A stretch of 64,000 nt of DNA from Patescibacteria group bacterium (GTDB taxonomy: Bacteria; Patescibacteriota; Patescibacteriia; JAHIZJ01): positions 124,070-188,069 of the forward strand of contig JBAZLK010000002.1 in the NCBI GenBank assembly GCA_041650335.1, in the 5' to 3' direction. Positions 1-53,617 of this stretch are shown here, piece after piece (within the stretch, counting starts at the first letter, position 1; each line of letters begins with the position of its first letter). Both the position numbers and the translations under genes were made by a program. The notes below the pieces were generated by a model. That model saw nothing but the letters and a program-made list of their open reading frames with translations. It did no database searches and had not been told where the DNA came from.

Positions 1-264
1 TGAGGCAACCATACTCTCCCCTTTTTCCCACTCGCCTTGCGGAAATTCCCAGGACACTGCCTTGACAGCGTACCGGTAGAGCTGGATCAGGTATATTTTT
101 TTACCCGCAATGGGAATGGTAACGCCGTAATCGGGTTTTTCAACAATGCCATAGACACCTCGACTGCCGTCAGAACGGATAACCCGTTTCTCCAACACTT
201 TCATCCAGTGATTTTGATAAACAATCTTTGAGCTAAGCGTTTTCCAAGGTTTCTTTGACTTCAT
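1..264 (-). CDS. NUDIX hydrolase (ADP-ribose pyrophosphatase-like), N-terminal part; C-terminus lies beyond window start
   Basis: Manual rc translation from ATG at 264: MKSKKPWKTLSSKIVYQNHWMKVLEKRVIRSDGSRGVYGIVEKPDYGVTIPIAGKKIYLIQLYRYAVKAVSWEFPQGEWEKGES..., the N-terminal pattern of ADP-ribose pyrophosphatase-type NUDIX proteins, running into the start of the Nudix box. Not in the ORF track because no stop falls inside the window. Confidence 0.5.
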   Translation of the reverse strand, partial: MKSKKPWKTLSSKIVYQNHWMKVLEKRVIRSDGSRGVYGIVEKPDYGVTIPIAGKKIYLIQLYRYAVKAVSWEFPQGEWEKGESMVAS

Positions 265-440
265 GGTATTCACCATTATTGGCAAGCTTTCATATCTATT
301 GTAGCTGGCCATGAAAAAATACACAAACCACCCTCTTGCATCTGTTGCATAAGTATGGTAAACCGCAGGTATTACCGCCGTTTCTCCAAGCAGTTACGGC
401 ACCACACCAGACGCCCTATTTCCAAGGAGGAGTGTATTCG

Positions 441-3543: not shown

Positions 3544-3577
3544 GCTCTATAAATTATCGAGCACCCGTATCGTAATT

Positions 3578-4489
3578 TTATACCTTCAAATGCCGACCAA
3601 TCGCAATCATTGACGATATCACCGAGAGAATCAGAGCTACAATCAGCTGGAGGCCGAATATTTCGAAGAAATGGCTGGCAAAGTAGCTCGCAATATTCAG
3701 ATCATAACCCTGGAAAAAGTTCGTAATTTGCGGAGAAATGACTTTTAACAACGGATAGAGTATGCCCGTGGAGATTACCGTGCCAAGCAACGCATAGATA
3801 ACGCTTTCGAGAATAAACGGCCCGCGGATAAACCAGCCCGTCGCGCCGACCAAACGCATAATACCGATCTCTTCACGATGTGTGTAAATGGTAATCCGAA
3901 TGGTGTTAAAAATAACCAGGATCGCAATAATGATAAAGGTGACACTCATCACCAGCGCGACTTGATACAAGCGATCGGTGATATTCGTCAGCCGCCGGAT
4001 AACGGTTTGATAGTCTTCGAAATCCCGGTCGTAAATAAGCTGGCTGTAGCTCGGGTCTGATAATACCTGCAAAACCTCGTTTGTTTTATTAAGGTCATTC
4101 ACGCGAACGATCAAGGTTGAGCCCAGCGGATTATCCGCTAATATTTCCAGTGTTTCTTGGATAACCGGATCATCCTTAAAACGTTCTTTGAATGAGGCCA
4201 GCGATTGCTCTTTTGGAATAAACGTCACGTCTTTCACTGAGTCGAGCGTCTGGAGTCGGGCTTGGATGGCCTGGATTTCTTTCTCGGCCACGTCGGGATT
4301 AAAATAGACGCTTAAATCCACTTTTTCTTCAACTGACTGGATCGCGCGATCGCCGATGAAGTTTACCGCTCCCAGCAGACTTACGGAAAAAAGCGTCAGA
4401 ACTAAAATCAATAAGGTGGCGGCGGAAAGCCAAATATTTCGGATGAAGTTCTGCCAGGCAAATTTGAGCGCGCGATAAAACGAAATCAT
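3578..4489 (-). CDS. ftsX: cell-division ABC transporter permease FtsX
   Basis: 303 aa, N-terminal TM plus large periplasmic loop plus 3 C-terminal TMs. Lies immediately downstream of ftsE. Confidence 0.75.
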   Translation of the reverse strand: MISFYRALKFAWQNFIRNIWLSAATLLILVLTLFSVSLLGAVNFIGDRAIQSVEEKVDLSVYFNPDVAEKEIQAIQARLQTLDSVKDVTFIPKEQSLASFKERFKDDPVIQETLEILADNPLGSTLIVRVNDLNKTNEVLQVLSDPSYSQLIYDRDFEDYQTVIRRLTNITDRLYQVALVMSVTFIIIAILVIFNTIRITIYTHREEIGIMRLVGATGWFIRGPFILESVIYALLGTVISTGILYPLLKVISPQITNFFQGYDLNIASYFASHFFEIFGLQLIVALILSVISSMIAIGRHLKV

Positions 4490-9507: not shown

Positions 9508-11313
9508 TCATTTTTTCCGCAAGAGGGCAAGATAGGCCTCTGGCGGGATATCAACCCGCCCCGTCTCGCGCATGCGCTTTTTGCCCTTTTTTTGTTTTTC
9601 CAAGAGCTTCATCTTCCGGGTGACGTCGCCGCCATAGAGCTTGGCCGTGACATCTTTCCGCAACGGGGCTAGCCGGGCAGACGCGATAATCGTACTCGAA
9701 AGCGTAGCCTGTATTTTCACTTCAAAGAGCTGGCGCGGAAGCGTCTCTTTGAGATTCTCAACGATGCGGCGGCCGTTGGCATAGGCTTCGCTTCGCCGCA
9801 CGATCGTCGCCAGCGGCTCGACGACTTCACCCGCAACCACAATGTCCAAACGGACAAGGTCGGCTTTACGGTATTCCAACAACTCATAACTCATCGAGGC
9901 ATAGCCGCGCGTCGCGCTTTTTAGTTTATCATAAAAGTTGATGATGACGCCAGCTAAGGGGATTTCGCAATGGACGACTACGCGCTCCGGATCAAGATAC
10001 TCCATGGTTAAATAAATGCCGTGACTTTCTTCAATCAGCTTCATGAGTGAACCGATAAAGCCGGACGGCGAGACAATATCAACTTTGAGCCACGGCTCTT
10101 CCATCGTTTCGATCTCGGCCAGATTCGGCAGCTCTTGGGGACTCCGGATCGTGATCGACTCGGCTTGTCCGCGCGTGTAGACGTGATAGGCAACGCTCGG
10201 CGCCGTCACGACTAAGTCAATATTATACTCGCGCTGCAAACGTTCCTGAACTATCTCTAAATGAAGCAGACCCAGGAATCCCGCCCGAAAGCCGAAACCC
10301 AAAGCTGGAAAATTCTCAGGCTCATAGGTCAGGGCGGCGTCGTTGAGCTTTAACTTCTCGATCCCCTCGCGGAGCCGCGGGTATTCATTTCCAACCTTGG
10401 CATAGAGTCCGGCAAACACCATCGGCTTCACGGATCGGTAGCCTGGTAGCGCGGCTGGATATGGCGGCGCCTCTTTCACGACCGTATCGCCCACGCGGCA
10501 ATCAGCCACTTCTTTCAAACCCGTGACGATATACCCGATCATGCCGGCCGTCAGCTCATCGCGCTTATCAAGTTTCGGGCTGAAAACACCGACCTCCAAG
10601 GCCTCAGTGACGCGATCAGTCTGTAAAAAACGCACCTTATCGCCGGCCCGAATCGCCCCATCAACCACGCGCACATACGCGACGACGCCGCGGTATTCAT
10701 CATAGACCGAGTCGAAAATCAACGACCGGTACGGCTGTACTTGATCTCCCGAAGGCGGCGGGATAACCTGGACGACGCGTTCGAGAATCTGCTCAATGTT
10801 CTGGCCTGTTTTGGCCGACACCAGAATAACGTCTGCTGGGGCAACGCCGATGAGTTTGACGAGATCTTTTGTGACGCGCTCGGTGTCGGCGTTCGGCAAA
10901 TCAATTTTGTTGATAACTGGGATAATCGTCAGGTTCTCTTCAAGCGCGAGATAGAGATGCGAGAGGGTTTGCGCCTCGATCCCCTGGGTAGCATCAACCA
11001 GCAAAATCGCGCCTTCGACCGCGGCCAACGTCCGGGAGACTTCATACGAAAAATCCACGTGACCGGGCGTATCGATAAAATGCAGAAGATACTGCTGCCC
11101 GTCTTTGGCTTGATATCGCATCTGCACCGGTTGGAGCTTGATCGTTATCCCCCGTTCTCGCTCCAGATCCATTTGATCAAGCAGCTGCTCTTTCATTAGG
11201 CGCTTCGGTACCGTTTTTGTGGCTTCTAAAAAACGGTCGGCCAAGGTCGACTTCCCGTGATCAATATGTGCGATCACGCAAAAATTCCGGATGTGCGTTA
11301 TGGCTTCATTCAT
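9508..11313 (-). CDS. lepA: elongation factor 4 (LepA)
   Basis: Start set to MNEAITHIRNFCVIAHIDHGKSTLADR (ATG rc at 11311-11313). GTPase G1 AHIDHGKST, DTPGH; full-length LepA-like C-terminus. The track ORF is extended 37 codons upstream. Confidence 0.9.
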   Translation of the reverse strand: MNEAITHIRNFCVIAHIDHGKSTLADRFLEATKTVPKRLMKEQLLDQMDLERERGITIKLQPVQMRYQAKDGQQYLLHFIDTPGHVDFSYEVSRTLAAVEGAILLVDATQGIEAQTLSHLYLALEENLTIIPVINKIDLPNADTERVTKDLVKLIGVAPADVILVSAKTGQNIEQILERVVQVIPPPSGDQVQPYRSLIFDSVYDEYRGVVAYVRVVDGAIRAGDKVRFLQTDRVTEALEVGVFSPKLDKRDELTAGMIGYIVTGLKEVADCRVGDTVVKEAPPYPAALPGYRSVKPMVFAGLYAKVGNEYPRLREGIEKLKLNDAALTYEPENFPALGFGFRAGFLGLLHLEIVQERLQREYNIDLVVTAPSVAYHVYTRGQAESITIRSPQELPNLAEIETMEEPWLKVDIVSPSGFIGSLMKLIEESHGIYLTMEYLDPERVVVHCEIPLAGVIINFYDKLKSATRGYASMSYELLEYRKADLVRLDIVVAGEVVEPLATIVRRSEAYANGRRIVENLKETLPRQLFEVKIQATLSSTIIASARLAPLRKDVTAKLYGGDVTRKMKLLEKQKKGKKRMRETGRVDIPPEAYLALLRKK

Positions 11314-12928
11314 AATTGGTTGACTGTCCGTTACGCTGAAAAAGTCGCTTGGCTTTATCAAGCCATTGCCGCAAAGCGCTGATTTCTTCGCAGTGCAGCA
11401 CGTAGGCGATGATAATGTAGGCAATCACGCCGGCCACAAAGGCAATGCTCGTCTGCAGGGCGATACCCAGAAAGGTTTGCATGTTGACACCGGTGGCAAT
11501 AAAATATTTCATGAGCTGAACAATCGCGCCCATGGCGATCGTCGCCACGATAATTTTTAGGGTGGAACGCAGAATTCTTCGTTCATCGAGATCGCCGACA
11601 ACGACACGCAAGGCGATCAATAAGAGTAACGTGTTTACAACGCTCGAGATTGAAAACGCCAACGCCAATCCATAAATACCCCAGCGTTGGCTCAACCAAA
11701 TCCCGAGGCCGATATTCATCGCCATCGAAATCAAGCTGATGATCACCGGCGTCTTCGTGTTTTGAAAGGCATAAAACGAGCGGGTGAGCATCGGTGCCAG
11801 GCTTTGGGCGAAGAGGGATAACGAAAAAAATCCGAGCGTCTGGGCGGTCAGGATGGTATCGTTCCAGTCAAACGCGCCCGCACCCAAGATGATCCGGACA
11901 AATTGAGCGCGAAGCAACAGAATGCCCACCGAAACCGGAATGATGAGAAAAAGGATTCTTCGAAAAGTCTCCGAGAAATGGCGGACAAAGCCGTCGCGAT
12001 CATTTTCCGCCCAAGCCTTACTGAAAACCGGAAATGACGAAATAGCCAGTGAAATCCCAAATACGCCAATGGGGAAACTCTGAAGATTGTTGGCCAGATT
12101 GAAAACCGCTACGCTGCCTGTGCCCAGGTTTGAGGCCAGAACATTGATCACCACCTGGTTGATCTGAACAACGCCGAGGCTTAGCGCCCGCGGTATCATC
12201 AACCGGCCGATTTTTCTCACGCCGGCATGAGCGGTATCAAAAATCCATTTATAGACAAAACCGACGCGGCGCGCCGCCGGCCACTGAACAACCAAGTGAG
12301 CAAACGAACCGATCACAACGCCATAGGCGAGACCTTTCACGCCCCAGTGCGGCGCGAGCACCAATATGCCGAAAATGATTCCGAAATTATACATGATCGG
12401 CGCGAGCGAATACACAAAAAACCGCCGAAACGAATTTAAAATTCCGCTTAAAACATTGCTCACCCCGAAGAAAACGATACTTACCAGCATGATCCGCGTC
12501 AGTAGGGCAGTCGCCGCCTTTTTTTCCGGTGAAAAACCAGGCGCGATAATACCCATTAATTGCGGCGTAAACAGCCACATCAAACCGCCGAGAATAATGA
12601 GCGTGATGGCGATCAGATTCAGAATCGAGTTTGTCATCGGCCAGGCTTGCCGTTCCACCTCCGGTTTTGACTGATCACGATGCCAGTACTCAAGGAAAAC
12701 GGGAATGAACGAAGCGGAAAGCGCGCCGAGGACGAAAATGTTAAAGATAAAGTCAGGCAGCCGAAAAGCGGCATAATACACATCGAGCACCTCGCCGGCG
12801 CCAAACGTTGACGCCAAAAGCCGGTCTCGGATGAGCCCCACCAGCCGACTCAAAACCGAGGCGAACCCAACAATGATGGCGCCGCCGAGGATTGTCGTTT
12901 CCAGACGGTAGAGTATCTTTTTTAGCAT
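11306..12928 (-). CDS. murJ: lipid II flippase MurJ (MviN)
   Basis: 540 aa, about 14 TM. N-terminal SRLVGLIRDRLLASTFGAGEVLDVYYAAFRLPDFIFNIF is the MurJ signature. Overlaps the lepA start by 8 nt. Confidence 0.85.
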   Translation of the reverse strand: MLKKILYRLETTILGGAIIVGFASVLSRLVGLIRDRLLASTFGAGEVLDVYYAAFRLPDFIFNIFVLGALSASFIPVFLEYWHRDQSKPEVERQAWPMTNSILNLIAITLIILGGLMWLFTPQLMGIIAPGFSPEKKAATALLTRIMLVSIVFFGVSNVLSGILNSFRRFFVYSLAPIMYNFGIIFGILVLAPHWGVKGLAYGVVIGSFAHLVVQWPAARRVGFVYKWIFDTAHAGVRKIGRLMIPRALSLGVVQINQVVINVLASNLGTGSVAVFNLANNLQSFPIGVFGISLAISSFPVFSKAWAENDRDGFVRHFSETFRRILFLIIPVSVGILLLRAQFVRIILGAGAFDWNDTILTAQTLGFFSLSLFAQSLAPMLTRSFYAFQNTKTPVIISLISMAMNIGLGIWLSQRWGIYGLALAFSISSVVNTLLLLIALRVVVGDLDERRILRSTLKIIVATIAMGAIVQLMKYFIATGVNMQTFLGIALQTSIAFVAGVIAYIIIAYVLHCEEISALRQWLDKAKRLFQRNGQSTNYE

Positions 12929-12960
12929 AATATCCTTCCTATAGTACCATCAATATCGAC

Positions 12961-12993: not shown

Positions 12994-13198
12994 TGGTCGC
13001 AGACTCGCTCCTGCCGAGTTGAGAGAAGGAGGCGAATAACGAACGGCAAGACGAAAAATCCGAAATTTTGTGTTGCGACGCGCGCAACGAGGATTCTGTT
13101 TGCTGATGTTCGATGACTTCCCTCCCTCACTACCGGCAGGAGTAAATGTGCCACCGGAAGTGTGGATAAGCCATTGTTCGTAGTATATTATACAAAAT

Positions 13199-13266
13199 CA
13201 CACGTTGATTGTGAACGTGTGTCGACATGGTTAAGGGGGCGGATTTGTCCGTCCCCTTTCTTCGGC
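13199..13266 (+). ncRNA. candidate small RNA convergent with the small ORF (possible antitoxin-like sRNA)
   Basis: A weak plus-strand promoter candidate (TGGATA 13163-13168, 18 nt, TATTAT 13187-13192). It is followed by hairpin CACACGTTgattgtgAACGTGTG, then terminator hairpin GGGGGCGGAtttgTCCGTCCCC plus TTTCTTCGG. Purely structural prediction. Confidence 0.25.
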
Positions 13267-13385
13267 TACCGCTGACCAAAGAGATAGCCGAGATACTCCG
13301 GCTGAGTGAGCCAGGTATAGACGATGACCGCGATCTCCAGGAACAGTACGCCGAACATCTGTTTTTCCCAGAATGAGATTTTCAT
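13266..13385 (-). CDS. small hydrophobic peptide (39 aa), not in the ORF track
   Basis: MKISFWEKQMFGVLFLEIAVIVYTWLTQPEYLGYLFGQR with a single TM. Strong SD: GGAAGGAGGAGAGCGGCC then ATG. It has its own promoter and a roughly 250-nt structured leader. The 96-aa track ORF 13231..13521 is in another frame and lacks an SD. Confidence 0.35.
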   Translation of the reverse strand: MKISFWEKQMFGVLFLEIAVIVYTWLTQPEYLGYLFGQR

Positions 13386-13650
13386 GGCCGCTCTCCTCCT
13401 TCCATGGATACCGGCCGGCTGATCGAGAACAACCTGAAGACTTGGAATAATATAAAGAGCAATTTGAAAGCCAAGTCTTCAGATTGTCATTGACCAGAAT
13501 AGTAATGTGCAGTGGTATCACCGCTGGAAAATGGGTGTGTACGCGGCTTCCCTTCCTCGTCTTCCTGTGAAGTGAAGAGAGAACTCAAGCGAGAAACCAT
13601 CACACCCATTTTTCAACGGTCAAGAGGAGAAACAGACGGAATTTTTTTAC

Positions 13651-13690
13651 GACCATCAATAATATACCAAGCTGGCGATTTTGTCAAGGG
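13651..13690 (-). promoter_or_regulatory. sigma70-like promoter driving the leader plus small ORF
   Basis: Minus sense CCCCTTGACA-17 nt-TATTAT (rc of 13682-13687 and 13659-13664). Confidence 0.45.
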
Positions 13691-13726: not shown

Positions 13727-16054
13727 TTATTTTTTTATTTGGAATATCGTACCAAGATAATAATCGCGGTCCAATATCTTTTCAAACGTCAACCTATTCG
13801 AATCATTCCGTAATTGTTGTTCGTCTGGCCATTGCCAGACAACCTGATAACCGTCGGGGTAGGTAATCTGGGACCGAAGCAAGGCGTCGAAACTCCCGGC
13901 CTGCCGCTGGATGAAGAGGCTGTACGGAAACGAATAATTTACCAAGTTTTCTGGCTTAATCAGGAACGGTAACCGATAGACGAACCGGACGGTCGCGCTC
14001 TGGCCCGGCTCGACCTGAACCCAATTTCCAAACACCGTCTTCCCAAACTCCTGGTTGATCCGGGTATTCGAGCGTTCGTCAATAATGACCTGACCCTCAA
14101 TCTGAGTCAAATCAGTGTCCGGCTGATACCCGGCCTCCGGCCATTTCATAAGCTTCGGGTCGGGTGCGACAAAGCCGGTCGCCTCGATTAATTCTGACCC
14201 AGCCGGCACATATAGCCGCATAAAGTCGATATTTTTTACACCAGTCCATTGATCGCCAGCCTTCCCGTTATGAACGCGGGTAATTTCAACCGTCGCCGTC
14301 GCCTGGCCGTCAGTACCGATCGCGAGTTGGTGAGAAATAGTTTGGTCGATCACCGCGTCTGTTTTGCCACCACTGATGTTCGTGTTCACGAGCATCAGAT
14401 AATCACCGCTGACCCGTTTGATTTCACCCGCCCAGCCGAGATTAACTACGTTTGTCTGAAGCGTTTCATCGCGGACATAAAAGAGGATATCGCGGCGCTC
14501 AAGCGCATCGCTGATGGCTGAAATGTTGGTAAAAAATTCCTTTTGGCCACCCTCAAATATCCGCTGGAGCAAGATTGGCAGTAAATCGGCGATAAACTGC
14601 TTTGGTTTGTTCTCCTCTTTATCGTATTCTTGTTCGACTTGATTGAGCGTTTCGTCAATAAAATTCTCACTTGTTATTGTAACCCCATACGTGTCTTGAA
14701 GGTCAATTGAGCCGCTGATTTTCAAGAGATTGATCACGACTTCGGGCGTTAAGCTGATGACCCCGTCGACGGTTGGTCCGCCACTTTTTTCATAGAACCA
14801 CATGATCTTCTTGGCTGACGTCGGGAAATCCGGAAACCAATTGGCGTCCTGGAGAAACCAGTGCGGGTTGACGAGATGCAAGGGCGTCGGCGAAACGACC
14901 TGTTCCGTTAGCTGACCCTGAAAATCATAGGGGCCGCCGCCGGGAACCTCGATTTTTTTTATGGCGCCATGATCAATATCGACCAGAGCGAGGCTGCCGA
15001 TGAATCCGCCAGTAGCACGCATTTCGCGGTTGTTCTGAAAAATCATCAGATACCGTTTTGAACCGTCGCCTCCTAATAGTTTTCGAAAGGTTTCGCCGAA
15101 CAATAAGAATTGGTCGAATTGCTGCTGCAATTGCGGCAAGCCTTCTTTCACGCGCTCCATTGCGGTTCGATATTGCGCCGGCAATGAATCGGCGTCGACC
15201 TGATTCAGATGCGTCGAGGCCAGCGCCAGGCGATCCCGGGCTGGTCCCAGGTATTCTTGGCTGGTCGCCAATAAATCGGTGATGTTATTTTGTATTAAAA
15301 AGTCTTTATTTTGGGCAATCTCCGGGTTGTAGGCCTGAATGGCTTGCGTGATATCCTGCCCGGCTAGCGCAATCGCCTGACCGGCCGCCAGGAGGTGTTC
15401 GCCGGACGATAACTGCTTGCCCTTCAGCGGGACAAAGCGCAGCAGGTCGATCACCGTGGCGCCGATTCGGTCCAGCTCGCGCTGAGCGGTCAGAAACGTG
15501 TCTGAGGCCTCGGCAAAACGGGCTCGAGCGGCATTATAATCGCTTTGCGTCGTGGCTTCGCCGGCCAGAACAAGCTGGTCAAAGGCGCGAATAGAGATGG
15601 CGAGAACTTGGCCGCGGACGTCGAGCAGGCGCTGATACCACCATAAGCCGAAGACGAGCAGTATTAAACCGAGCGAGACGGCCATGAATGCCGAGAGCGA
15701 TTTTAAGTGGCGACGCTCGATGCGTATTCTGGGCGGGGTGAACTTGACGGCGCGTTTCGGAGCGGCGGTTGCAGGTTGCGTGAATGTTGTCGGCGGAGCC
15801 AGCTCAACCGATTCAACTTTTTGAGACGGCGCCGGGGCGGCGGTTTTCGACGGCTTGCTGGAGGTCAGCGACTTCAGTTTTCCGAAGACGGTCCCCTTTT
15901 TTCGCTGTTCCAACTCCTGACGTAACCGTTCAACTTCTTTTTGCAACATCAACTCCCGGAGATTGATGACATTCGACTCCGGGATCGAGCCGCCTTCCTG
16001 GAGATGTGAAAGCGGTATTCGCTTGGCGCTGCCTTTTTTCTTCCTTCGTTCCAT
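13727..16054 (-). CDS. DUF4012 domain-containing membrane protein
   Basis: 775 aa, N-terminal TM. Central motif MIFQNNREMRATGGFIGS is the DUF4012 hallmark. Sits directly upstream of the glycosyltransferase cluster. Confidence 0.65.
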   Translation of the reverse strand: MERRKKKGSAKRIPLSHLQEGGSIPESNVINLRELMLQKEVERLRQELEQRKKGTVFGKLKSLTSSKPSKTAAPAPSQKVESVELAPPTTFTQPATAAPKRAVKFTPPRIRIERRHLKSLSAFMAVSLGLILLVFGLWWYQRLLDVRGQVLAISIRAFDQLVLAGEATTQSDYNAARARFAEASDTFLTAQRELDRIGATVIDLLRFVPLKGKQLSSGEHLLAAGQAIALAGQDITQAIQAYNPEIAQNKDFLIQNNITDLLATSQEYLGPARDRLALASTHLNQVDADSLPAQYRTAMERVKEGLPQLQQQFDQFLLFGETFRKLLGGDGSKRYLMIFQNNREMRATGGFIGSLALVDIDHGAIKKIEVPGGGPYDFQGQLTEQVVSPTPLHLVNPHWFLQDANWFPDFPTSAKKIMWFYEKSGGPTVDGVISLTPEVVINLLKISGSIDLQDTYGVTITSENFIDETLNQVEQEYDKEENKPKQFIADLLPILLQRIFEGGQKEFFTNISAISDALERRDILFYVRDETLQTNVVNLGWAGEIKRVSGDYLMLVNTNISGGKTDAVIDQTISHQLAIGTDGQATATVEITRVHNGKAGDQWTGVKNIDFMRLYVPAGSELIEATGFVAPDPKLMKWPEAGYQPDTDLTQIEGQVIIDERSNTRINQEFGKTVFGNWVQVEPGQSATVRFVYRLPFLIKPENLVNYSFPYSLFIQRQAGSFDALLRSQITYPDGYQVVWQWPDEQQLRNDSNRLTFEKILDRDYYLGTIFQIKK

Positions 16055-21449: not shown

Positions 21450-22020
21450 TAGCGTCTCAAGAAGACCGATAAGCCGAATTCTGTCTCCGCACCACTCGCT
21501 CCGTTCCACTATCGCTCGGGTGCAGAGCAAGCCCTGTATTGAAATTGGGGGCTTGCTCTGTGCCCAAACATAGCGAAGCGAAGTGAGTGGTACAGAGGAT
21601 GATCATCTCTCTAGGCCCGAGTGTTGCCACTGGGCTCAAGCGACCTACCCGTCCGGTCGACTGACCGGACCTATTCGGTCTTGCACCTGGCAGGGTTTTT
21701 CCCGTCCGATCATTACTGACCGGACCTGTGGGCTCTTGCTTTCACCCGCCGAAGCGGGCTATCCCACGCGAAGGTGGGCCCACTCTTTTCACCCTTACTA
21801 ACAGAGGCACCAAGTTTATGCCTCCATTAGCGGTATTGTTTCTGTGACACTCTCCCTGGCTTACGCGCGCCTCAAAAGTCTATAGTGCTCTTCAGACCAC
21901 GCGTTTCCGCCTCCATTTCGAAGGTGCCAACTTACCCGGCCGCATGACCGGGTGGTGTTCGGACTTTCCTCCCTCAGGCATTTATTTGCCTGACGGCGAT
22001 CATCTGGTCTTCTCAAGACT
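21450..22020 (-). ncRNA. rnpB: RNase P RNA (bacterial type, unusually long)
   Basis: Minus sense shows the conserved P4/J regions: GGAGGAAAGTCCGAAC, AGGTCGCTTGAGCCCAGTGGCAACACTCGGGCCTAGA, GTAAGGGTGAAA, and 3' ACAGAATTCGGCTTATCGGTC. P1 pairs 5' AGTCTTGAGAAGACC with 3' GGTCTTCTTGAGAC. About 570 nt, owing to extra hairpins including two related GTCCGGTCAGT...CCGGACGGG elements. Confidence 0.8.
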
Positions 22021-45800: not shown

Positions 45801-48572
45801 TTATTCTACCGGCAGAGTAAATATAAACGTGCTCCCCTTGCCCAAACCTTCGCTCTCGACCCAGATCTGTCCGCCGTGGGCGTCGACGATGCGCTTGGCA
45901 ATATAGAGACCGAGACCGGACCCGTCCGGCTGGACTTGGGCGATGCCCTCCCCGCGGACAAACTTCGTGAACAGCCGCTTGGCGTCATCCGGCGGGATAC
46001 CGCGGCCCGTGTCCTTCACGGAAACGCTGATATTGCCGTTGATCTTCTGAACCGAAACCGTGACGCTGCCCTGCGGTGTGTATTTTATCGCGTTATCGAC
46101 GAGATTCAAAATGACGTCTTTCAATTTATCCGAATCAACCATCAGGGCGGGCAGTTTTTTGGCCGGCTTTTTGTATTCCAGCTTGAGGCCTTTTTCCTCA
46201 GCCACCTTGATGATTTCGATCAATTCGGTCTGGATCAGTTCTTCGATTTGCGCCGGTTTCTTATCGAGTACGAATTTACCCGCCTCGATCTTCGTAATAT
46301 TGAGGAATAAATTTACCATCCGGACCATGCGCTTGCTCGCATCCAGCACTTGTTTCAAAATATTCAGTTTTTCTTCGTCAATCTTTCCGAAATCGCCGTC
46401 CACCAGCATGGACAGCCAGCCCTGGATGCCGGTCAGCGGGGTGCGCAATTGGTGCGAGGCGATGGAGATAAACTCGTTCTTCGCCTCGTCGAGCTGTTTC
46501 AAATGATCGTTCGCCTTGGCCAGCTCGGTATTCGTCAGCCGTAGCTCCTCGACCAACTTCAGATTCCTAGTGACAATACCCATCTGATCGGCCAGCGACT
46601 CCATCATCTGGATCTCGTCCTCAGATACTTCTTTCTTGGATTTTTGGATGACAAACACGATCGATCCGATGATCTCCTTTTCCGAGAAAATCGGCGCGGC
46701 CACGATCGTCTTCGCGCCCACGAGCTTTTGCATAGCATAGCAGATCGGCTTTGGAATCGGCGGGGACAGGAAATCAGATAGCGATTCGCTGATCTGGATA
46801 TTTCCCGTGCGGATTGCCTCCGTCGCCAGATCCTTATCCGCCATCGTGCCGCTGTATTGTTCGAGCTGTTTGGGCAGGAGTTTGACCGCGGCTTGAGTGA
46901 TTTTTGTCATCGTGATGGCCACCGGATGCGTTTTTTCACCTTCTCCGCGTAAAATAATAACCCCCCCGATGTACCCCAGCTCATTGGCGATGCCGTCAAC
47001 GATCGCCTGGGTAACCTTCTTGAAGTCGAGCGACCGAGTGATGATATTGCCGATACTCTGGAGAGCGTTCAAGTAGACATTCCGGTTCTTTAGCTCCACG
47101 TTGGCCATCTGAAGATCGGCCGTGGCGTGCTCGACCTCAACCTTCAGCTTTTCACTGAATGATTTTACCTCGTCATAGAGCCGCGACTTCTCGATCGCCG
47201 ACCCCATGAGCGGGCTCAAGACTTCGAGCAGTTTCAGGTCGTTTCCGCTATAGACATCGCCGGATCGCTTCTGGCCCAGCACATAGAGGCCAGTCACCTC
47301 GCCCTCGAGCATGATCGGCGCGATCACTGCCGCGCCCGTGGCTTTTACCTCAGCTAGTGATTTCTCGAGCTGTTTGCGCTCGCGTTCATCGGCCGTATCG
47401 GAGATTTTTCGCTCAAGCTCTTCGAGGACAACCACTTTTTCGGTTTTTTGAACGTATTTGGCGACCGAGCCATTCGCATCGACGCGCGTATTATTACCGT
47501 TACCGTTGTTATTTCTACGCTTGCTGTATGACTGTTTGTTTTTCGTGAGCAATAATATGTCCGCATATTTGATTTTCAGAATACTGGCGAGCTTCCACTC
47601 CACTGACGACAGCAGATCATCGAGCTCGATCTTCACACTGACCATTTCGGTCAGTATCTGGGTGGCTTCGGTATAGTCCACCTCGCCTTTGAAGAATATT
47701 GCATCGGTAATTTTTGCCAGTAAACGCTTCAACGGATCAAAACCGAAAACTATTACAAGCGAGACAAGGATAGTCGCGAGAAACCCCGACCCGCCAAGCT
47801 CTTGGATAAAAAGACCGGTCAGAAACGTAGCTGAAGTGAAAGCAAACGTAGTAAAAAGAATGAGAAAGAAATAGATAATGGAGCGAGATATAACCACCCT
47901 AATATCAAACAATCTGTGTTTGACGATTGCATAGGCGGTAATAATCGCATAAATGAAAACAAAATAATTACCAACAGGATAAATATTTAATCTAAAATCT
48001 AGTAAAAAATTTGTAGATCCACCAACAAATCCAATCAATGACGCGACAAACATGTATAATAACTGTTGTGATCTGAGACCAAGAGCTTTTTTATATTCAA
48101 TATATATATTTCTGATACTCCAAAAAACGACTGCAACAAAATATATAAGAAATGTTGGGTATATGCTTCCAGTTTTTACCGGCCAATAGCCAAAATATGT
48201 CCTGGGACTCACTTGCTCGATAAACAATTTAGAAAAAACGAGAATCGAAAATATTACCGAAATGACATACAAAAAAATAGTAATATACAAGTATTTCTTT
48301 TTTGTCCTGCCGGTTAATACAACGCTATAACGAAAAAATACGGCGGGTAATAACGCAGTACCAATATACAACAACCTTTGCCAAATCAATGCCTGATCAG
48401 AGTTATTAGCAATGACGGTACCGAATAAACCTATAGTCCATATTGAAGTTACACAACTGACAAGAAACCATATTTGATTTAATTCTTTCTTCCTATTTCC
48501 AAATAAAACAAACAGTCCTAGTGCAACAGTTAATATCGCGGTTAAAAGACAGGTATACGCAAAAGTGTTCAT
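45801..48572 (-). CDS. sensor histidine kinase with N-terminal 7TM sensor module and GAF domains
   Basis: 923 aa. The first ~300 aa are multi-TM. H-box FISIASHQLRTPLTGIQGWLSML, N/G boxes (NLVDNAIKYT, DTGRGI, GSGLGLYI). Confidence 0.8.
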   Translation of the reverse strand: MNTFAYTCLLTAILTVALGLFVLFGNRKKELNQIWFLVSCVTSIWTIGLFGTVIANNSDQALIWQRLLYIGTALLPAVFFRYSVVLTGRTKKKYLYITIFLYVISVIFSILVFSKLFIEQVSPRTYFGYWPVKTGSIYPTFLIYFVAVVFWSIRNIYIEYKKALGLRSQQLLYMFVASLIGFVGGSTNFLLDFRLNIYPVGNYFVFIYAIITAYAIVKHRLFDIRVVISRSIIYFFLILFTTFAFTSATFLTGLFIQELGGSGFLATILVSLVIVFGFDPLKRLLAKITDAIFFKGEVDYTEATQILTEMVSVKIELDDLLSSVEWKLASILKIKYADILLLTKNKQSYSKRRNNNGNGNNTRVDANGSVAKYVQKTEKVVVLEELERKISDTADERERKQLEKSLAEVKATGAAVIAPIMLEGEVTGLYVLGQKRSGDVYSGNDLKLLEVLSPLMGSAIEKSRLYDEVKSFSEKLKVEVEHATADLQMANVELKNRNVYLNALQSIGNIITRSLDFKKVTQAIVDGIANELGYIGGVIILRGEGEKTHPVAITMTKITQAAVKLLPKQLEQYSGTMADKDLATEAIRTGNIQISESLSDFLSPPIPKPICYAMQKLVGAKTIVAAPIFSEKEIIGSIVFVIQKSKKEVSEDEIQMMESLADQMGIVTRNLKLVEELRLTNTELAKANDHLKQLDEAKNEFISIASHQLRTPLTGIQGWLSMLVDGDFGKIDEEKLNILKQVLDASKRMVRMVNLFLNITKIEAGKFVLDKKPAQIEELIQTELIEIIKVAEEKGLKLEYKKPAKKLPALMVDSDKLKDVILNLVDNAIKYTPQGSVTVSVQKINGNISVSVKDTGRGIPPDDAKRLFTKFVRGEGIAQVQPDGSGLGLYIAKRIVDAHGGQIWVESEGLGKGSTFIFTLPVE

Positions 48573-49216
48573 TGTATTGTATTCTGTTTTTCCACTAAAT
48601 TGACAATCTTTTTGGCTATTTGTCGTTTTCCTTTAATAAAAATGATATTATTGGCATGGTCTAATATAAATGCCTCGTGAACCCCTCTAACTCTTTTATA
48701 TTCGTTTGCCACCATGAAATCGGCGCGTGACTCCGCCATACTTTTGGACGCGATCTGAATTAATTGTTTTGATGTTTTGTTTACTTCCAACTTGAACTTA
48801 ACAAGAATGGTACTGGGGGTAATTTTTTTAATATAATTTACTATTTTTTTTGTTGGCTTCAGTTTCAAAAATATCGTTTTCTTGCCACTTTTTATTTTCC
48901 CACTATATTTTTTTGATAACTGATAATCGGATATTGCGGCGGAATGAAATATTGCGTCGTATTTATTTTCTTTAATTTCTTTAATGAATATCCGAAACAA
49001 TTCATCATAATAGTGAAATTTTATTAATCTAACTTTAATAGATCTAAGTTTATGATCACAAACTCTTCCTGGTCCTAACATCAGTGTAACCTTGTGTCCT
49101 CTTCTGCTAGCGATTTTTGCTATTTCAAAACCAAGATTACCTGCAAAAACATTCGTAATTACTCTTACTTTATCGATGGGAACCCAAACTGGACCGGCGG
49201 TCACTAATACTCTCAT
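48569..49216 (-). CDS. coaB: phosphopantothenate--cysteine ligase-like (CoaB domain)
   Basis: MRVLVTAGPVWVPIDKVRVITNVFAGNLGFEIAKIASRRGHKVTL matches the CoaB pattern VLVTSGGT.EPID.VRFI.N.SSG. Confidence 0.55.
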   Translation of the reverse strand: MRVLVTAGPVWVPIDKVRVITNVFAGNLGFEIAKIASRRGHKVTLMLGPGRVCDHKLRSIKVRLIKFHYYDELFRIFIKEIKENKYDAIFHSAAISDYQLSKKYSGKIKSGKKTIFLKLKPTKKIVNYIKKITPSTILVKFKLEVNKTSKQLIQIASKSMAESRADFMVANEYKRVRGVHEAFILDHANNIIFIKGKRQIAKKIVNLVEKQNTIQ

Positions 49217-50012
49217 TTTTTACTATATAATTATTTTTTACTTTTTTATACCATTTCCATGGAGTCCTAAACAAATTGTATTTTACGTATAGTGATAAAT
49301 GATTTTGTTTAAACCATTTGATAAACTCTTTATCAATATCTTCTCTACTTCTTATTTGATGTCCCCTTTTCCTGAGAAAATCGATATAGATATTACCTAT
49401 TGGAAAGATAAAATGTTTAGTAATATATCTCGGTTTTTTCTCTAGTTGATAATCAATATTATCCAAAGGCTCACTCATGCTAATAATGTGCTTTTCATTT
49501 ATTGGATGCACTGCATCATGTTCCCCATCCCATATAATCAAATCTGTGAGATTATCAATATGTTTTGTCTTCAATGAAAGTTCTGTATCCGTTGATGGGT
49601 CGCATTTTATCCAGCGATTATCTATATATACAAAGCAAACTATATGCACCGATGAACTACTAATACTTTCCTTGATAAAAGAAGGAAGAATATGCCCAAA
49701 AGATTCCCCGCCAATTACCTTATATATACAATATCCGCTCGGTATACCTGCAGCTCTAAAAAGCGCAACAAGTAAATTTGTACTAGTGGTACACATGCCC
49801 GTCTGACTCTCCATAGTTTCAGAAGCTCTCTTACTCCATGCGCCAACCCTGTATTTAATATTATCCCTTACATATTCAAAAAGTGCTATCGCAAGATCCT
49901 TATCATTCTGATTGACCTTTTTATAACTTTTAACAAAATCTATAATATTGTGATTATCATAATCACAATATTTTGTAACAGCTAAATACTTTTGCTTATT
50001 TATTTTTTCCAT
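49170..50012 (-). CDS. transglutaminase-like cysteine protease superfamily protein
   Basis: Core GMCTTSTNLLVALFRAAGIPSGY (catalytic Cys), then His/Asp region (SFGHIL...VYIDNRWIKCDPS). Overlaps coaB by 47 nt and coaC by 13 nt. Confidence 0.55.
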   Translation of the reverse strand: MEKINKQKYLAVTKYCDYDNHNIIDFVKSYKKVNQNDKDLAIALFEYVRDNIKYRVGAWSKRASETMESQTGMCTTSTNLLVALFRAAGIPSGYCIYKVIGGESFGHILPSFIKESISSSSVHIVCFVYIDNRWIKCDPSTDTELSLKTKHIDNLTDLIIWDGEHDAVHPINEKHIISMSEPLDNIDYQLEKKPRYITKHFIFPIGNIYIDFLRKRGHQIRSREDIDKEFIKWFKQNHLSLYVKYNLFRTPWKWYKKVKNNYIVKNESISDRRSSLGSHR

Positions 50013-50578
50013 TGCTTTAATAATTTTTCGATGTTATTTTGAAGGACATCATTTCCAATTAGCGCTCCTTCACCCTCATAACCGCATGCTAATTTTCCTT
50101 TGATCGGTCCAACGATGCTATATTTATCCAAGTTGCCTATTTTAATATTTCTCAATTTGCTAATATTTGACTGGATTATTTCATTTTCCCACATATGACA
50201 ATTCATAGCGGGCGCAATAAGTACTGGCGTTTTTTTCGGGAGTGCGCACATTACTGTTGTAAGTAAATTATCAGCTATTCCACATGATAATTTACTTATT
50301 GTATTTGCAGTCGCCGGTGCTAATACAAAAATGTCGCACCAATCAGCTAAATGTATGTGCTCAACAACGGTTTTATCGTGCGTTTCAAAGGTATCTAAAT
50401 ATACTTGCGAATTAGACAATGTCTGTATAGTTACCAGTGAAATCAATTGCGTGGCAGCCGCCGACATAATAACTTTAACAGTTGCCCCTGAAGCCTTTAG
50501 TCTATTTATTAAACTACACATTCTATAAGCACCAATACATCCAGTAATTCCTAATAATATCTTTTTGTTCTTTAACAT
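50000..50578 (-). CDS. coaC: phosphopantothenoylcysteine decarboxylase-like flavoprotein (CoaC domain)
   Basis: KKILLGITGCIGAYRMCSLINRLKASGATVKVIMS... and PAMNCHMWEN match the HFCD flavoprotein family. Confidence 0.6.
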   Translation of the reverse strand: MLKNKKILLGITGCIGAYRMCSLINRLKASGATVKVIMSAAATQLISLVTIQTLSNSQVYLDTFETHDKTVVEHIHLADWCDIFVLAPATANTISKLSCGIADNLLTTVMCALPKKTPVLIAPAMNCHMWENEIIQSNISKLRNIKIGNLDKYSIVGPIKGKLACGYEGEGALIGNDVLQNNIEKLLKQWKK

Positions 50579-50640
50579 ACCATTTAATTAAATTATTATA
50601 TATTAAAATTCTTTATAAAACATATAGGACAAAGATCCAA

Positions 50641-51324
50641 CTACTTCTTCAATACTATCACTGCAATCATAACCGCCACGACACCGGCAAATAGCGGAGA
50701 ATATGCCATGTTAATTGATAAATCAAAAAGGGGGAAGATGCGATCCATAACCACGCCAACTAAACCGCTAATACCAATTATTATAGTAACGGCGGTTACC
50801 TGTTTTTTTAGTTGCACCGAGACAATGTTTATTTTTTTTATTAACAAATATAGTGATAACAACAAATATATCAACGATACTATGAAGAGCGCCCAGAACG
50901 CATTACCTGGTTTAATATCGATAAATCCTTCATTTACATTAACATCATTAATGAAGCTTGGCTGTAATATTATTGCTGGCAAGACAATAAATATTGATCC
51001 AAATATTACCAATCGGCGAACAAGAGGATCCATATTTGTCGGCAACGGATAATACATTGCCAATGCAAGGAGACTTACGAAACTGGCCGTACCAGAGTAG
51101 AATGCTGCCCTGGCAATAATCAACTTTGACATTTCTGTATTCGAAGTCATGAGAAGTCCAACAAAGAAGGACATTAGTGAAAAACCAAAAAGCATAGCGC
51201 AGAGCGCATAGATAGACTGAGTTTTTTGATATCGAAAATAAATATACAATGCGAGAATCAATTCTAATATGGAAAGAGACCAAAGAATTATTGTATTTGC
51301 TTCAGTAATGATACTCATTTTCAT
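50641..51324 (-). CDS. hypothetical polytopic membrane protein
   Basis: 227 aa, about 6-7 TM, AT-rich. Confidence 0.45.
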   Translation of the reverse strand: MKMSIITEANTIILWSLSILELILALYIYFRYQKTQSIYALCAMLFGFSLMSFFVGLLMTSNTEMSKLIIARAAFYSGTASFVSLLALAMYYPLPTNMDPLVRRLVIFGSIFIVLPAIILQPSFINDVNVNEGFIDIKPGNAFWALFIVSLIYLLLSLYLLIKKINIVSVQLKKQVTAVTIIIGISGLVGVVMDRIFPLFDLSINMAYSPLFAGVVAVMIAVIVLKK

Positions 51325-51642
51325 ACCGCTTTTTTCTTAAATAGAATAGGTGTAAGAAACTTAATTGTTACCGATTCACAAAAAGCATATAAAAAAGCCA
51401 GCGCAAAAAGCAAGCCAGCTTCAATAAGTAAAATGTAGTTTTGTATCTGCATCCTTGTCTACTATGAAAAATTAGGATTCCAGTCGGATGCCTTTTAGTT
51501 ACAGAGATATTATACAAAAATCTGCGGAAAAGTCAAATCTGAAATAATTACACTAAATATGACACGATGCACATAAAAATGTGCGATAAATGGTCTATTT
51601 GTGTGAATATATCGAAGTACTCACTTTTGTTACATTTCGTTG

Positions 51643-51996
51643 TCATCCTGAACTTGCTTCAGGATCTCCATACCACTTTTCCGCTAGGTCAATATAATTT
51701 GGATTCTGCTTTTGAATCAAATTCATTTTCCACACCCGATGCCAATTCTTCAATTGTTTTTCTCTCGTGATAGCCGCACAGATGTCATCGGTTTCTTCAT
51801 AATACAATAATTTGGTCAGATTATATCTCGCACTGAAACCCCTAACTAAATGATTCTTGTGTTCATACATCCTCCGTATTAAATCATTAGTCACACCGAT
51901 GTAAAGCGTTGTGTAGAGAGTGTTGGATATAATATAGACATAATAGGTTTTCATAAATTCTATGTTGATTATGAGATGCTGAAACAAGTTCAGCAT
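51643..51996 (-). CDS. GIY-YIG nuclease family protein
   Basis: YYVYIISNTLYTTLYIGVTNDLIRRMYEHKN is a canonical GIY-(10-11)-YIG plus Arg/Glu region. 117 aa. Confidence 0.7.
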   Translation of the reverse strand: MLNLFQHLIINIEFMKTYYVYIISNTLYTTLYIGVTNDLIRRMYEHKNHLVRGFSARYNLTKLLYYEETDDICAAITREKQLKNWHRVWKMNLIQKQNPNYIDLAEKWYGDPEASSG

Positions 51997-52048
51997 GACA
52001 ATAAAATAAAAAACAGGGTTTATGTCTCCCTGCTTTCTTTTATCTTTT

Positions 52049-53509
52049 TTAAACTTTTACCCCAATCCGCTCAAGCGCGTTTTTATAAAGTATCACATTT
52101 TCTAATGCATAGGCCGCCTCCTGCGCGACATTCTGTAAATATCTGACGTCTTCTGTTGTATACGGTTCGTTCGATGTCTTACTGCCAAGAAGAACAAGCG
52201 CAGAAAGTCCGTGGCGCGTAGCTAGCGGCAATACCGCTTCGGTTTTCAGATTGTCCATTTCCTTTTCGCACTGCTCGAGCCGTCGCTGTTCAAGACCGAA
52301 TGCTTCCTGAAATAGATACGGGATTTCTTCACGGATTAGCATTTTCATGGAATCTTTCAAAAAACTCGGTAATGCTTCTTCTGCGCGAATACTGATATTG
52401 CCGTCTAATGAGTCATATGTTCCCTGGCGCTTGTTTACTATTAAACAAGTTATTCGATTCACGTTCACAACCTTTAATATTTCACCCGATAGCTCTCGGC
52501 AAAACTCTTCCAAGTCCACTAAACCGATCACGCGCTGCCGAACATCTTCAATCATCTGTTTCATATTCGGCTGGCGCGAAAAAAACAAACGGTTAATTAT
52601 TCGTATCAACCATTTACGAAATGGGATAAAGGTTACGGCAATAACAAGCACTGAAGCAAAATTCACAAATGCACGGTTGAATGCGTACTTCTGGACTAAA
52701 TAATCATTCGCAAGCAGAACTAAATAACCATAGACGATTAGTAATAATATAAGAACCAGCGTATGGGCCGCGCCCTTTTTCATTACTATCCTTACGTCCA
52801 TAAAACGATACCGTAGTATGGCATACGCAATAAGCCACGTAAACACAGCTAAACCAATCAAACTTAGAGGATATAATTTATTGTAACCAAGCGATGGCAG
52901 TAGTAAATTAAATAGTAAAGAAAATGTCGCAACGCAAATAAACGCAAAGATAATATAACGTAGTTGAATCTTTGTAACTTTTGATGTAGTTGATTTGAAA
53001 ATATTGAATAATTTTTTCAATCCAAAAAATGCATATATTAATAAATAAATAATATATGCAGGATACAATTGACTAATACTCGGACGATAACCGTAATTTT
53101 CAATATATTCGACATCAGAGATGTTATACCTTGTCGGAACTATTGCTACAATGGCTATGGATGGTAAAAAAAGTAGCAAAATTTGCCACCACGAAAATGG
53201 CGTCTTTTTTTTATAGAGAGTATACGCAAAAAGTAAAAATAATGTCGGGGAAAACGCCGGTCCGAGAAAAGTCAGTCTCGCCCATAAAAGAGCGGCTTCT
53301 TTGCCACCAACAAGATCGGACATAATGTTCGCAAACAACCACACAGAGAGACTTAGCACTAACGATCCAAAGAAGATCAGATTTGGTCTTTTTTTGCTCT
53401 TAATAAATACGGTAATGGATATTACCAGGAGCGCAAAAAAACAAATTACTGAGGTAACTTCAATAATTTGGATCTCTAGACTATGATATATTCCAGGATT
53501 AATCTCCAT
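52049..53509 (-). CDS. membrane sensor with N-terminal 7TM module and C-terminal GAF-like domain (no kinase domain)
   Basis: The first ~300 aa are multi-TM and resemble the N-terminus of the 45801..48572 kinase. The C-terminus is GAF-like (ALVLLGSKTSNEPYTTEDVRYLQNVAQEAAYALENVILY). Confidence 0.5.
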   Translation of the reverse strand: MEINPGIYHSLEIQIIEVTSVICFFALLVISITVFIKSKKRPNLIFFGSLVLSLSVWLFANIMSDLVGGKEAALLWARLTFLGPAFSPTLFLLFAYTLYKKKTPFSWWQILLLFLPSIAIVAIVPTRYNISDVEYIENYGYRPSISQLYPAYIIYLLIYAFFGLKKLFNIFKSTTSKVTKIQLRYIIFAFICVATFSLLFNLLLPSLGYNKLYPLSLIGLAVFTWLIAYAILRYRFMDVRIVMKKGAAHTLVLILLLIVYGYLVLLANDYLVQKYAFNRAFVNFASVLVIAVTFIPFRKWLIRIINRLFFSRQPNMKQMIEDVRQRVIGLVDLEEFCRELSGEILKVVNVNRITCLIVNKRQGTYDSLDGNISIRAEEALPSFLKDSMKMLIREEIPYLFQEAFGLEQRRLEQCEKEMDNLKTEAVLPLATRHGLSALVLLGSKTSNEPYTTEDVRYLQNVAQEAAYALENVILYKNALERIGVKV

Positions 53510-53617
53510 GGTGTTTGTCTTATGTGTTATACAGAATCATACCAAAATCAGCGAAAAAGTCAAATTCTTTAGTTAATTACAAAACCGGGGACAACCCCGG
53601 TTTTGTACATTATCCGC

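Follow-up and report, generated by a model that had tools for sequence, protein, structure and literature searches.

The genomes of Patescibacteria (the candidate phyla radiation, CPR) are tiny and leave little DNA to spare. What occupies a spacer of about 800 nt that, read on the minus strand, separates a DUF4012 gene (13727-16054) from murJ (11306-12928) in one of these bacteria? The spacer belongs to a 64,000-nt stretch of contig JBAZLK010000002.1 (assembly GCA_041650335.1, forward-strand positions 124,070 to 188,069) from an uncultured Patescibacteria bacterium. This whole stretch is called the window below, and is numbered from its first letter. An earlier note, made from the letters alone, had read the spacer as an independent unit consisting of a strong promoter, a long structured leader, the gene of a 39-aa membrane peptide and a convergent antisense RNA, possibly a type I toxin-antitoxin (TA) module. 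By comparison with related loci we arrive at another reading, to which we give an even chance: the spacer would encode a sense-only, possibly bifunctional RNA together with a strain-variable small membrane protein, within a variable island. The anatomy of the unit we hold with high confidence. The functional inference built on it is tentative, with the balance tilted against it.

The comparison set is formed by about 11 related Patescibacteria loci. Relatives were gathered via MurJ, by a scan of species-representative genomes and then by protein search and contig look-ups. MurJ identity to the window is 96% in locus L002, 71% in L003, 70% in L004 and 67% in L005, and many farther loci were collected besides. 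Protein search and contig look-ups contributed L071/L072, L073, L074, L075, L076, L077, L078 and L079, and loci L080 and L081 were reached through the peptide itself. The named relatives are metagenome-assembled genomes of Patescibacteria and Candidatus Kerfeldbacteria. In the window, the neighbours of the locus are GT4, DUF4012, MurJ and LepA, and the gene order DUF4012 - spacer - murJ - lepA is common to all relatives collected. The locus is present in one copy within the 64 kb of the window.

A unit from promoter to terminators on the minus strand

The peptide unit lies entirely on the minus strand of the window, and extends over a predicted ~460 nt from its promoter to its terminators (Table 1). 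The order is promoter P1, RNA domain A, RNA domain B, a stem around the Shine-Dalgarno sequence (SD), an open reading frame (ORF) of 39 aa, and hairpins H1 and H2. In this respect the earlier description of an independent unit between DUF4012 and murJ was borne out, and so was that of its strong promoter, TTGACA-17-TATTAT. Promoter-like sites number 7 in the region, against 2.0±1.5 in shuffled sequences. An equivalent TTGACA promoter is found directly 3' of the DUF4012 gene in L002, L075, L077 and L076, and equivalents of P1 were recognised by eye in L003, L004, L005 and L071.

From the predicted transcription start site (TSS, ~13652) to the AUG at 13385, the leader is ~267 nt long. Folding of the RNA from 13652 to 13225 gave -163.4 kcal/mol, versus -122.6±5.5 kcal/mol for dinucleotide shuffles (z score -7.4). 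The 12-bp and 10-bp helices that had been described in the leader were both recovered, as the cores of larger, covarying hairpin domains. Two other pairings were discarded: a long-range helix of the minimum free energy (MFE) structure, joining the 5' end to the ORF, because its ORF arm is deleted in L002, and a pairing of the domain B loop with the SD region, which when traced by hand had 7 bp in the window, 6 bp in L077 and none in L002 or L003.

The SD, AGGAGG (13400-13395), is placed 9 nt 5' of the ATG. The stem that brackets it covaries between the window and L077, where GGCCG/CGGCC is replaced by GGCUC/GAGCC. A small SD-enclosing hairpin is found in every species, with folding energies that are the same as those of shuffles (z about 0), and a role of this stem in translation control is suggestive only.

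Two hairpins follow the ORF. In the window, the U-rich tail of H1 is on the plus strand only, and its sense tail is degenerate; the U-run is on the sense side in L002, L077, L003/L073 and L076, more weakly so in L004, and on both strands in the L075 equivalent. H2 stands as a sense terminator 15 nt beyond H1. Its stem is maintained by compensatory changes between the window and L002 (CACACGUU.../AUGCGUU...), and homologous sense terminators are found in L003, L077 and L002.

Two RNA domains conserved on the sense strand

Domain A includes the 12-bp helix AAAAUGGGUGUG/CACACCCAUUUU, which forms the core of arms of 20 nt (13520-13539/13601-13620), as well as two invariant motifs, GAGUUCUCUCUUC and GAAGACGAG. 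When its predicted pairs were examined in 7 species, 93.4% of cells were paired, versus 44-57% in slid controls, and 20 compensatory cells were counted, versus 8.6±2.4 in shuffles (0/500). Eight to nine pairs are changed on both sides (9 versus 6.1±1.6 in shuffles, 33/500), and by this last count the support for domain A is moderate.

In domain B, the 10-bp helix forms the core of 27-nt arms (13419-13445/13471-13497). The invariant core is AUCUGAAGACUUG/CAAGUCUUCAGAU in the window, and the loop holds a conserved AAAUYGYUCUUU. Among 11 sequences, 94% of cells are paired, and 9 pairs are changed on both sides, versus 4.6±1.3 in shuffles (1/500) and at most 5 in slid controls.

Which strand forms these structures can be read from the non-canonical pairs. 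G-U cells outnumber A-C cells by 41 to 8 in domain A and by 31 to 3 in domain B, which argues that the structures are formed by the sense RNA, the one that carries the ORF, and not by an antisense RNA. If A and B were read on the antisense strand, pairing would drop to about 82%. A covariance model of domain B found exactly one copy per locus, with a sense score always at least 30 bits above the antisense score. Within the clade, no genome with a MurJ identity of 62% or more lacked the domain, and in Patescibacteria loci farther away the model detected no copy. Leader DNA of the window and of L002 is 93% identical, versus 88% for murJ, whose synonymous divergence (dS) is 0.62; this indicates that the leader is under strong purifying selection. 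Comparison shows domains A and B, as predicted here, to be sense-strand RNA structures under strong purifying selection.

No gathering-score match to Rfam 15 was obtained in the intergenic region. Permissive Rfam scans of the window, L075 and L003 returned sub-threshold generic hairpins only, such as microRNA precursors and STnc290 (20 bits for a cut-off of 60). A scan of JGI metagenome contigs with a domain B pattern gave 20 loci, all of them chance matches by nhmmer. On viral contigs, the domain B pattern gave 0 matches, and a looser domain A pattern 120 chance matches, none of which was confirmed. The A and B elements are therefore not phage-borne in that collection.

A lineage-restricted gene for a small membrane peptide

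The AGGAGG and the 39-aa peptide with a single transmembrane (TM) segment, both announced in the earlier note, were found, and a 17-residue window of the peptide has a mean Kyte-Doolittle hydropathy of 2.09, giving it a hydrophobic core of TM grade. Homologous ORFs of 36-44 aa come after domain B and a strong SD (GGAGG, GGAAGGGGGUG or GGAAGGGGGUGAU) in 9 relatives, namely L002, L077, L003, L073, L004, L075, L076, L080 and L081. The ORF is thus conserved in relatives, where its absence from them would have told against the earlier proposal.

All homologues have a hydrophobic window of TM grade. They share a layout of a short polar N-terminus, a hydrophobic stretch of ~18 residues and then F-x-P-x-x-W/L-x-x-x-F-G-Q-R/W. 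Insertions and deletions are in frame, and the position of the stop codon is retained. Between L073 and L075, which belong to one allele class, non-synonymous and synonymous divergence of the peptide gene (dN/dS) are 0.26/1.83, a ratio of about 0.14. Opposite the peptide ORF, no antisense frame is consistently open.

Among 5.8 billion proteins the peptide family amounts to 7 clusters, all of this clade. A profile search of 1.84 billion representatives returned the same clade only, plus spurious tandem-repeat translations (P0128 and P0129). No significant match of the peptides was obtained in Pfam or NCBIfam (E up to 10), nor in PADLOC or PHROGs (E up to 1). The weak sub-threshold matches that appeared (E of 0.04 or higher, below curated cut-offs) were none of them toxin-related. 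With its SD, frame, length, hydrophobic core and aromatic C-terminal motif retained, the ORF is by this comparison a real, lineage-restricted gene.

The ORF is hyperdivergent between near-identical genomes

L003 and L073 can in effect be taken as a single species: their MurJ proteins are 99.1% identical, and murJ dS is 0.044. Their small ORFs are nevertheless only 67.5% identical as DNA (77/114) and 46% identical as protein. The two genomes differ at 37/114 positions of the ORF, at 14/561 of the non-coding flanks and at 22/1632 of murJ (Fisher p = 2e-20 for the ORF versus the flanks, and 9e-32 versus murJ), so that flanks and murJ are 97-98% (547/561) and 98.7% (1610/1632) identical, respectively. 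The limits of the divergence are sharp: it begins at codon 3 and stops ~12 nt past the stop codon, and the 60 nt 5' of the ORF, as well as more than 80 nt starting ~15 nt past the stop, are identical bar one single-base indel. The dS of the peptide gene in this pair, 0.67, is fifteen-fold the neighbouring neutral rate given by murJ, which suggests allele replacement or long-lived allelic lineages rather than drift. The L073 peptide is nearer to that of the more distant L075 (62% of amino acids) than to that of L003.

A second pair behaves similarly. Between the window and L002, the ORF is 60% and the 3' untranslated region (UTR) 59% identical, to be compared with the 93% of the leader and the 88% of murJ. 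In a third pair, L076 and L081, the ORF is 87% and the flanks 90-92% identical, and the changes cluster in the TM segment. Mutagenesis by a diversity-generating retroelement was considered and set aside: the island showed neither a reverse transcriptase nor a template repeat, and no adenine bias was evident by eye. That a peptide is swapped wholesale between strains whose neighbouring genes are ~99% identical points to conflict or recognition rather than to housekeeping.

A modular island between DUF4012 and murJ

The content of the interval varies between relatives. The simplest complete arrangement, P1-A-B-peptide, is that of the window, L002 and L077. In L003, L073 and L004, a third RNA element, C, and a Cys-rich ORF of 141-152 aa are inserted between A and B. 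L075 has element C between A and B, and a two-TM ORF of 56 aa with a duplicated initiation region before the peptide. An ORF of 152-185 aa for a membrane and coiled-coil protein is found 3' of the peptide in L004, L071 and L080, and its L079 homologue is upstream of B. Two relatives have no peptide ORF: L005 has only P1, domain B and a rod-shaped RNA (see below) in direct succession, and in L079 domain B is followed directly by a terminator. Since both keep domain B, it is B that is the constant element, and the peptide the optional one.

Element C is conserved and structured, with a closing helix AUUUGGAGG...CCUCCAAAU and a conserved GAACUGUCCUGUCA, and is absent from the window, L002 and L077; its L003 and L075 copies had no match in Rfam. 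The Cys-rich ORF is likewise hyperdivergent between L003 and L073, where it is 60-88% identical per 50-nt window, versus 94-100% for the surrounding RNA modules, and the L073 copy carries an extra indel of ~140 nt. In L075 and L080, the peptide initiation region GGAAGGGGGUGGUUCGGAUG is repeated before each cistron. Members of the membrane and coiled-coil family occupy differing positions in the island and share a C-terminus, FW.AH..A...GF..L..WK.YL; in L004, L071 and L080 a conserved non-coding leader is present 5' of their ORF. Those tested against Pfam, PADLOC and PHROGs gave no match. More generally, the accessory ORFs of the island had no significant match in Pfam, NCBIfam, PADLOC or PHROGs, defence and phage families included.

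Downstream neighbours of the peptide unit

Between the peptide unit and murJ lies the gene of a rod-shaped small RNA (sRNA), which has its own promoter, P2. Its 43 pairs include 18 with compensatory changes in 8 species, and on all measures 0/500 shuffles did as well. No match was found in Rfam, 6S RNA included. The rod RNA is missing in L077, which has the peptide, and present in L005 and L079, which do not. It contains a stretch, CCUCCUUC, that is complementary to the SD region of the window (inverted repeat I7, 13025-13035 versus 13392-13402). Computed duplex energies between rod RNA and peptide initiation region gave z scores of -1.8 to +0.3, with no preference for the RNA of the same species.

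A DnaA-like box near P2 is kept as TTATNCACA, in which only N varies (C, A or G), in the window, L002, L003, L073, L004, L075 and L079. The box may serve as a DnaA operator for the rod sRNA, or belong to the rod RNA itself. An origin of replication with a DnaA-box cluster was rejected, as a single TTATNCACA occurs in the 64 kb (chance alone would give 1.5) and the GC skew does not switch.

Downstream of the sRNA terminator, an extended -10 sequence TGGTACTAT (consensus TGnTAnAAT; 12941-12949, minus strand) is located 12-20 nt before the start of murJ, and is found in all relatives. Its conservation, and the lack of an SD in several relatives, suggest that murJ may be expressed from its own promoter as a nearly leaderless mRNA.

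Two features elsewhere in the window were recorded in passing. A bacterial class A RNase P RNA (21454-22015, minus strand) matches over 562 nt a model of 367 positions, which implies about 195 nt of insertions. Positions 48001-54000 have a G+C content of 0.32-0.40, versus about 0.50 elsewhere, and a strongly negative GC skew; this stretch may be a foreign island.

Table 1. Features of the DUF4012-murJ interval. Positions are those of the window unless a relative is named.
Feature	Position	Strand	Remarks
Promoter P1, TTGACA-17-TATTAT	13687..13659	-	11/12 consensus matches; predicted TSS ~13652
RNA domain A	13516..13628	-	long irregular hairpin, 39 predicted pairs
RNA domain B	13419..13497	-	23-bp hairpin, ~30-nt loop
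Translation initiation region	13386..13416	-	5-bp stem GGCCG/CGGCC around SD, ending right before AUG
Small ORF, 39 aa, MKISFWEKQMFGVLFLEIAVIVYTWLTQPEYLGYLFGQR	13266..13385	-	predicted single-pass membrane peptide; lineage-specific family
GC-rich hairpin H1, GGGGACGG...CCGCCCCC	13235..13256	.	right behind stop codon; sense terminator in relatives
Hairpin H2 and tail, AUUUUGUAU	13199..13221	-	8 pairs; predicted sense intrinsic terminator of P1 transcript
Promoter P2, TTCACA-17-TATAAT	13215..13187	-	serves rod-shaped sRNA; -35 inside H2; conserved
Claimed antisense promoter TGGATA-17-TATTAT (13163..13191) and ~68-nt convergent sRNA	13163..13265	+	9/12 match; unsupported by comparison
TTATCCACA, perfect DnaA-box consensus	13169-13161	-	17-20 nt downstream of P2 -10
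Rod-shaped RNA, ~160 nt	12995-13155	-	separate gene, not part of peptide unit
Rod RNA terminator	12994-12976	-	prediction
Element C	L003 ~2560-2700; L075 ~3570-3700; L004 ~1340-1480; L071 ~2570-2700; L073 ~225-350		between A and B
Cys-rich ORF, 141-152 aa	L003 2785-3213; L073 442-867; L004 1566-2024		between C and B; no known family
Two-TM small ORF, 56-58 aa	L075 3841-4011; L080 ~78-254		between domain B and peptide gene
Membrane plus coiled-coil proteins, 152-185 aa	L004 3031-3588; L071 3715-4173; L080 604-1134; L079 667-1152		

A proposed function and the points against it

In the reading that we favour, the RNA domains would be the conserved functional core of the locus. A long, near-perfect duplex with a sequence-invariant core and a conserved loop makes domain B a candidate recognition element, placed at the 5' end of the mRNA or close to it. 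It would probably act in cis, as a 5'-UTR element recognised by a protein or by RNase III, and set the stability or the translation of the small-membrane-protein cistron that follows. Domain B may, besides, function as an independent RNA, in which case the transcript would be bifunctional. Translation would be tuned by the small hairpin that encloses the SD. The peptide itself would be an accessory membrane factor that varies from strain to strain under diversifying or balancing selection; candidate roles for it are competition, interaction with phages or with a host, or a membrane-active toxic effect. No convergent antisense RNA would take part in its control.

Several observations weigh against this reading. 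The comparison covers 7-11 fairly close sequences in which many stem positions are invariant, and common ancestry inflates the statistics against shuffles. Promoters and terminators are consensus predictions, and the SD-enclosing hairpins have no more stability than shuffles. Hyperdivergence is extreme in two genome pairs and mild in the third. Finally, a weak antisense promoter match, 9/12, is present in the window itself, which may have an antisense RNA of its own.

Alternative readings

The peptide could be a toxin-like membrane peptide that does without a cis-encoded antisense RNA, being held in check either by RNA in cis (domain B, the SD hairpin) or by the rod sRNA acting in trans. In tisB/IstR-1 and shoB/OhsC, an adjacent sRNA acts in trans. 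Here too, a hydrophobic peptide is made from a structured mRNA, a strongly covarying and separately transcribed sRNA comes right downstream, its CCUCCUUC stretch is complementary to the SD region of the window, and the fast allelic turnover would suit a gene involved in conflict. However, the duplex energies computed for initiation region and rod RNA equal those of shuffled controls. The CCUCC/GGAGG complementarity is a generic polypurine-polypyrimidine pairing that is not kept in L003, and the distribution of the two genes does not match, the rod RNA occurring in the peptide-less L005 and L079 and lacking from the peptide-bearing L077. We consider this alternative unlikely.

About equally improbable is that the locus is primarily a trans-acting dual-function RNA, with A and B as its effectors and the small ORF as a dispensable, lineage-variable passenger. 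Such a view would account for RNA domains that are far more conserved than the ORF. It would also fit L079, where B stands by itself ahead of a terminator, L005, where the rod RNA follows B directly, and L003 and L004, where other genes and terminators come between A on one side and B and the ORF on the other. On the other hand, no target complementarity was found, in a pairing test limited to the initiation region versus the rod RNA, and the conservation of domain B is mostly in a perfect duplex rather than in a single-stranded seed. The very strong SD is moreover kept, and dN/dS is below 1 within allele classes, so that the ORF does not behave as a neutral passenger.

A more ambitious reading takes the DUF4012-murJ interval as a whole. 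It could be a diversification locus, in which invariant RNA modules (A, C, B and rod) frame small-protein cassettes that are swapped or maintained as long-lived alleles: the peptide of 37-44 aa, the two-TM protein of 56-58 aa and the Cys-rich protein of 142 aa. The modules would then serve both as expression scaffolds and as anchors for recombination, the P1 RNA would be bifunctional, and the peptide would act in strain-specific interactions such as self/non-self distinction, host attachment or phage exclusion. This is speculative, and we attach a small probability to it.

Antisense control and the type I toxin-antitoxin proposal

The earlier note had placed a ~68-nt convergent RNA opposite the 3' end of the peptide unit, and compared the arrangement with txpA/ratA and bsrG/SR4. 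In a type I TA module of this kind, the plus-strand sRNA, starting from ~13199, would base-pair to the toxin mRNA at its 3' end, leading to decay of the mRNA or to a block of its translation. The small hydrophobic peptide and the highly structured mRNA agree with this, as do the 9/12 promoter on the plus strand and, in the window, the U-rich tail of H1 on that same strand. L075 has a terminator tail on each strand as well as a weak promoter on the antisense side, and the locus sits in a strain-variable island.

The antisense promoter did not withstand comparison. Its -10 is the palindromic, AT-rich -10 of P2 (the TATAAT region) read in reverse, and its -35 is the TTATCCACA box. The match recurs only in L002; L075 has a different, unrelated 9/12 site, and in L003/L073, L077, L076 and L004 an antisense promoter was sought and none was found. 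Nor did the terminator hairpin that both transcripts were thought to share hold up, because the plus strand alone carries the U-rich tail of H1 in the window, and in other species the hairpin terminates in the sense direction. A CUCCUC near the 5' end of the leader, said to be able to pair with the SD, is indeed present (13629-13624), but its partner in the MFE structure is not the SD: it is the ORF-internal sequence that is deleted in L002. The motif is not conserved in L003 or L004; there, more than 900 nt lie between the equivalent position and the SD, and with them a further ORF and a terminator. Of the geometry as a whole, the structured mRNA and the small hydrophobic peptide stood, and the antisense RNA did not.

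The characterised Bacillus systems differ in further respects. Type I toxins of Bacillus are hydrophobic peptides of 38-59 aa, encoded by structured mRNAs of a few hundred nt with 3' hairpin terminators (PMC6562991), and up to this point the locus, with its 39 aa, resembles them. Their antitoxin RNAs are 180-222 nt long, have promoters of their own and are encoded at loci on the skin or SPbeta prophage elements (PMC6562991). Here, the only antisense signal is a non-conserved 9/12 promoter with ~68 nt behind it, the sequence of the peptide resembles none of those toxins and matches no toxin family, and the locus is single-copy, always between DUF4012 and murJ, in fixed chromosomal synteny and without homologues among the viral contigs scanned, even if the content of the island varies and the ORF is missing from L005 and L079. 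Domain B also survives in those two, where the ORF is gone. A conserved convergent antisense control of the peptide is not supported by the comparison, and a type I TA module is not demonstrated. We regard it as very unlikely, and on present evidence the label should stay out of the annotation.

Single-TM peptides of single-stranded RNA phages act on MurJ. That the peptide here serves the MurJ flippase or the DUF4012 protein in a housekeeping role, as an accessory subunit or a regulator, with the RNA elements as ordinary 5'-UTR structure, would agree with this precedent and with a DUF4012-murJ position strictly conserved across the clade, but is most improbable, because a specific partner should co-vary with MurJ, which is 99.1% identical between L003 and L073 where the peptide is 46% identical, and because the peptide is missing in L005 and L079 though murJ and DUF4012 are intact.

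Relation to known systems and significance

Dual-function coding RNAs include RNAIII/hld of Staphylococcus, SgrS/SgrT and SR1/SR1P. The locus shares with them a structured RNA of ~0.2-0.5 kb that contains a peptide ORF and is better conserved than it, as well as relatives that have the RNA without the ORF, here L005 and L079, which keep domain B. It differs in that its conserved parts are long duplexes with no trans target or seed region identified, and in that the peptide is a TM peptide behind an unusually strong SD. Neither by sequence nor through Rfam is it related to them.

The sharply bounded hyperdivergence within near-identical flanks, and the peptide allele classes that are common across species boundaries, are reminiscent of the pherotypes of comC and agrD and of bacteriocin/immunity cassettes. 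Unlike these, the locus has no adjoining genes for processing, export, a receptor or immunity. No Gly-Gly leader was seen in the peptide by inspection, and it resembles a membrane anchor rather than a secreted signal.

The OLE RNA is ~600 nt long, and its partner OapA is a multi-pass membrane protein. As in OLE/OapA, the gene of a membrane protein comes here directly 3' of a conserved and highly structured RNA, and the lineage is an unusual one among bacteria. OLE is however longer, OapA crosses the membrane several times, and no Rfam match to OLE was found here. The locus is best filed under none of the type I TA modules, the dual-function RNAs or the pherotype and bacteriocin loci: as far as comparison can tell, it is a structured RNA plus a small-protein gene.

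Domains A and B and the rod RNA are, as predicted structures, previously undescribed. One 800-nt spacer holds three covariation-supported RNA structures outside Rfam, together with the gene of a lineage-specific small membrane protein. To our knowledge, the regulatory RNAs and small proteins of Patescibacteria are almost unexplored. If the RNA modules are indeed regulators, or anchors for the exchange of cassettes, they would offer a handle on gene control and on strain-level diversification in organisms that are still beyond cultivation.

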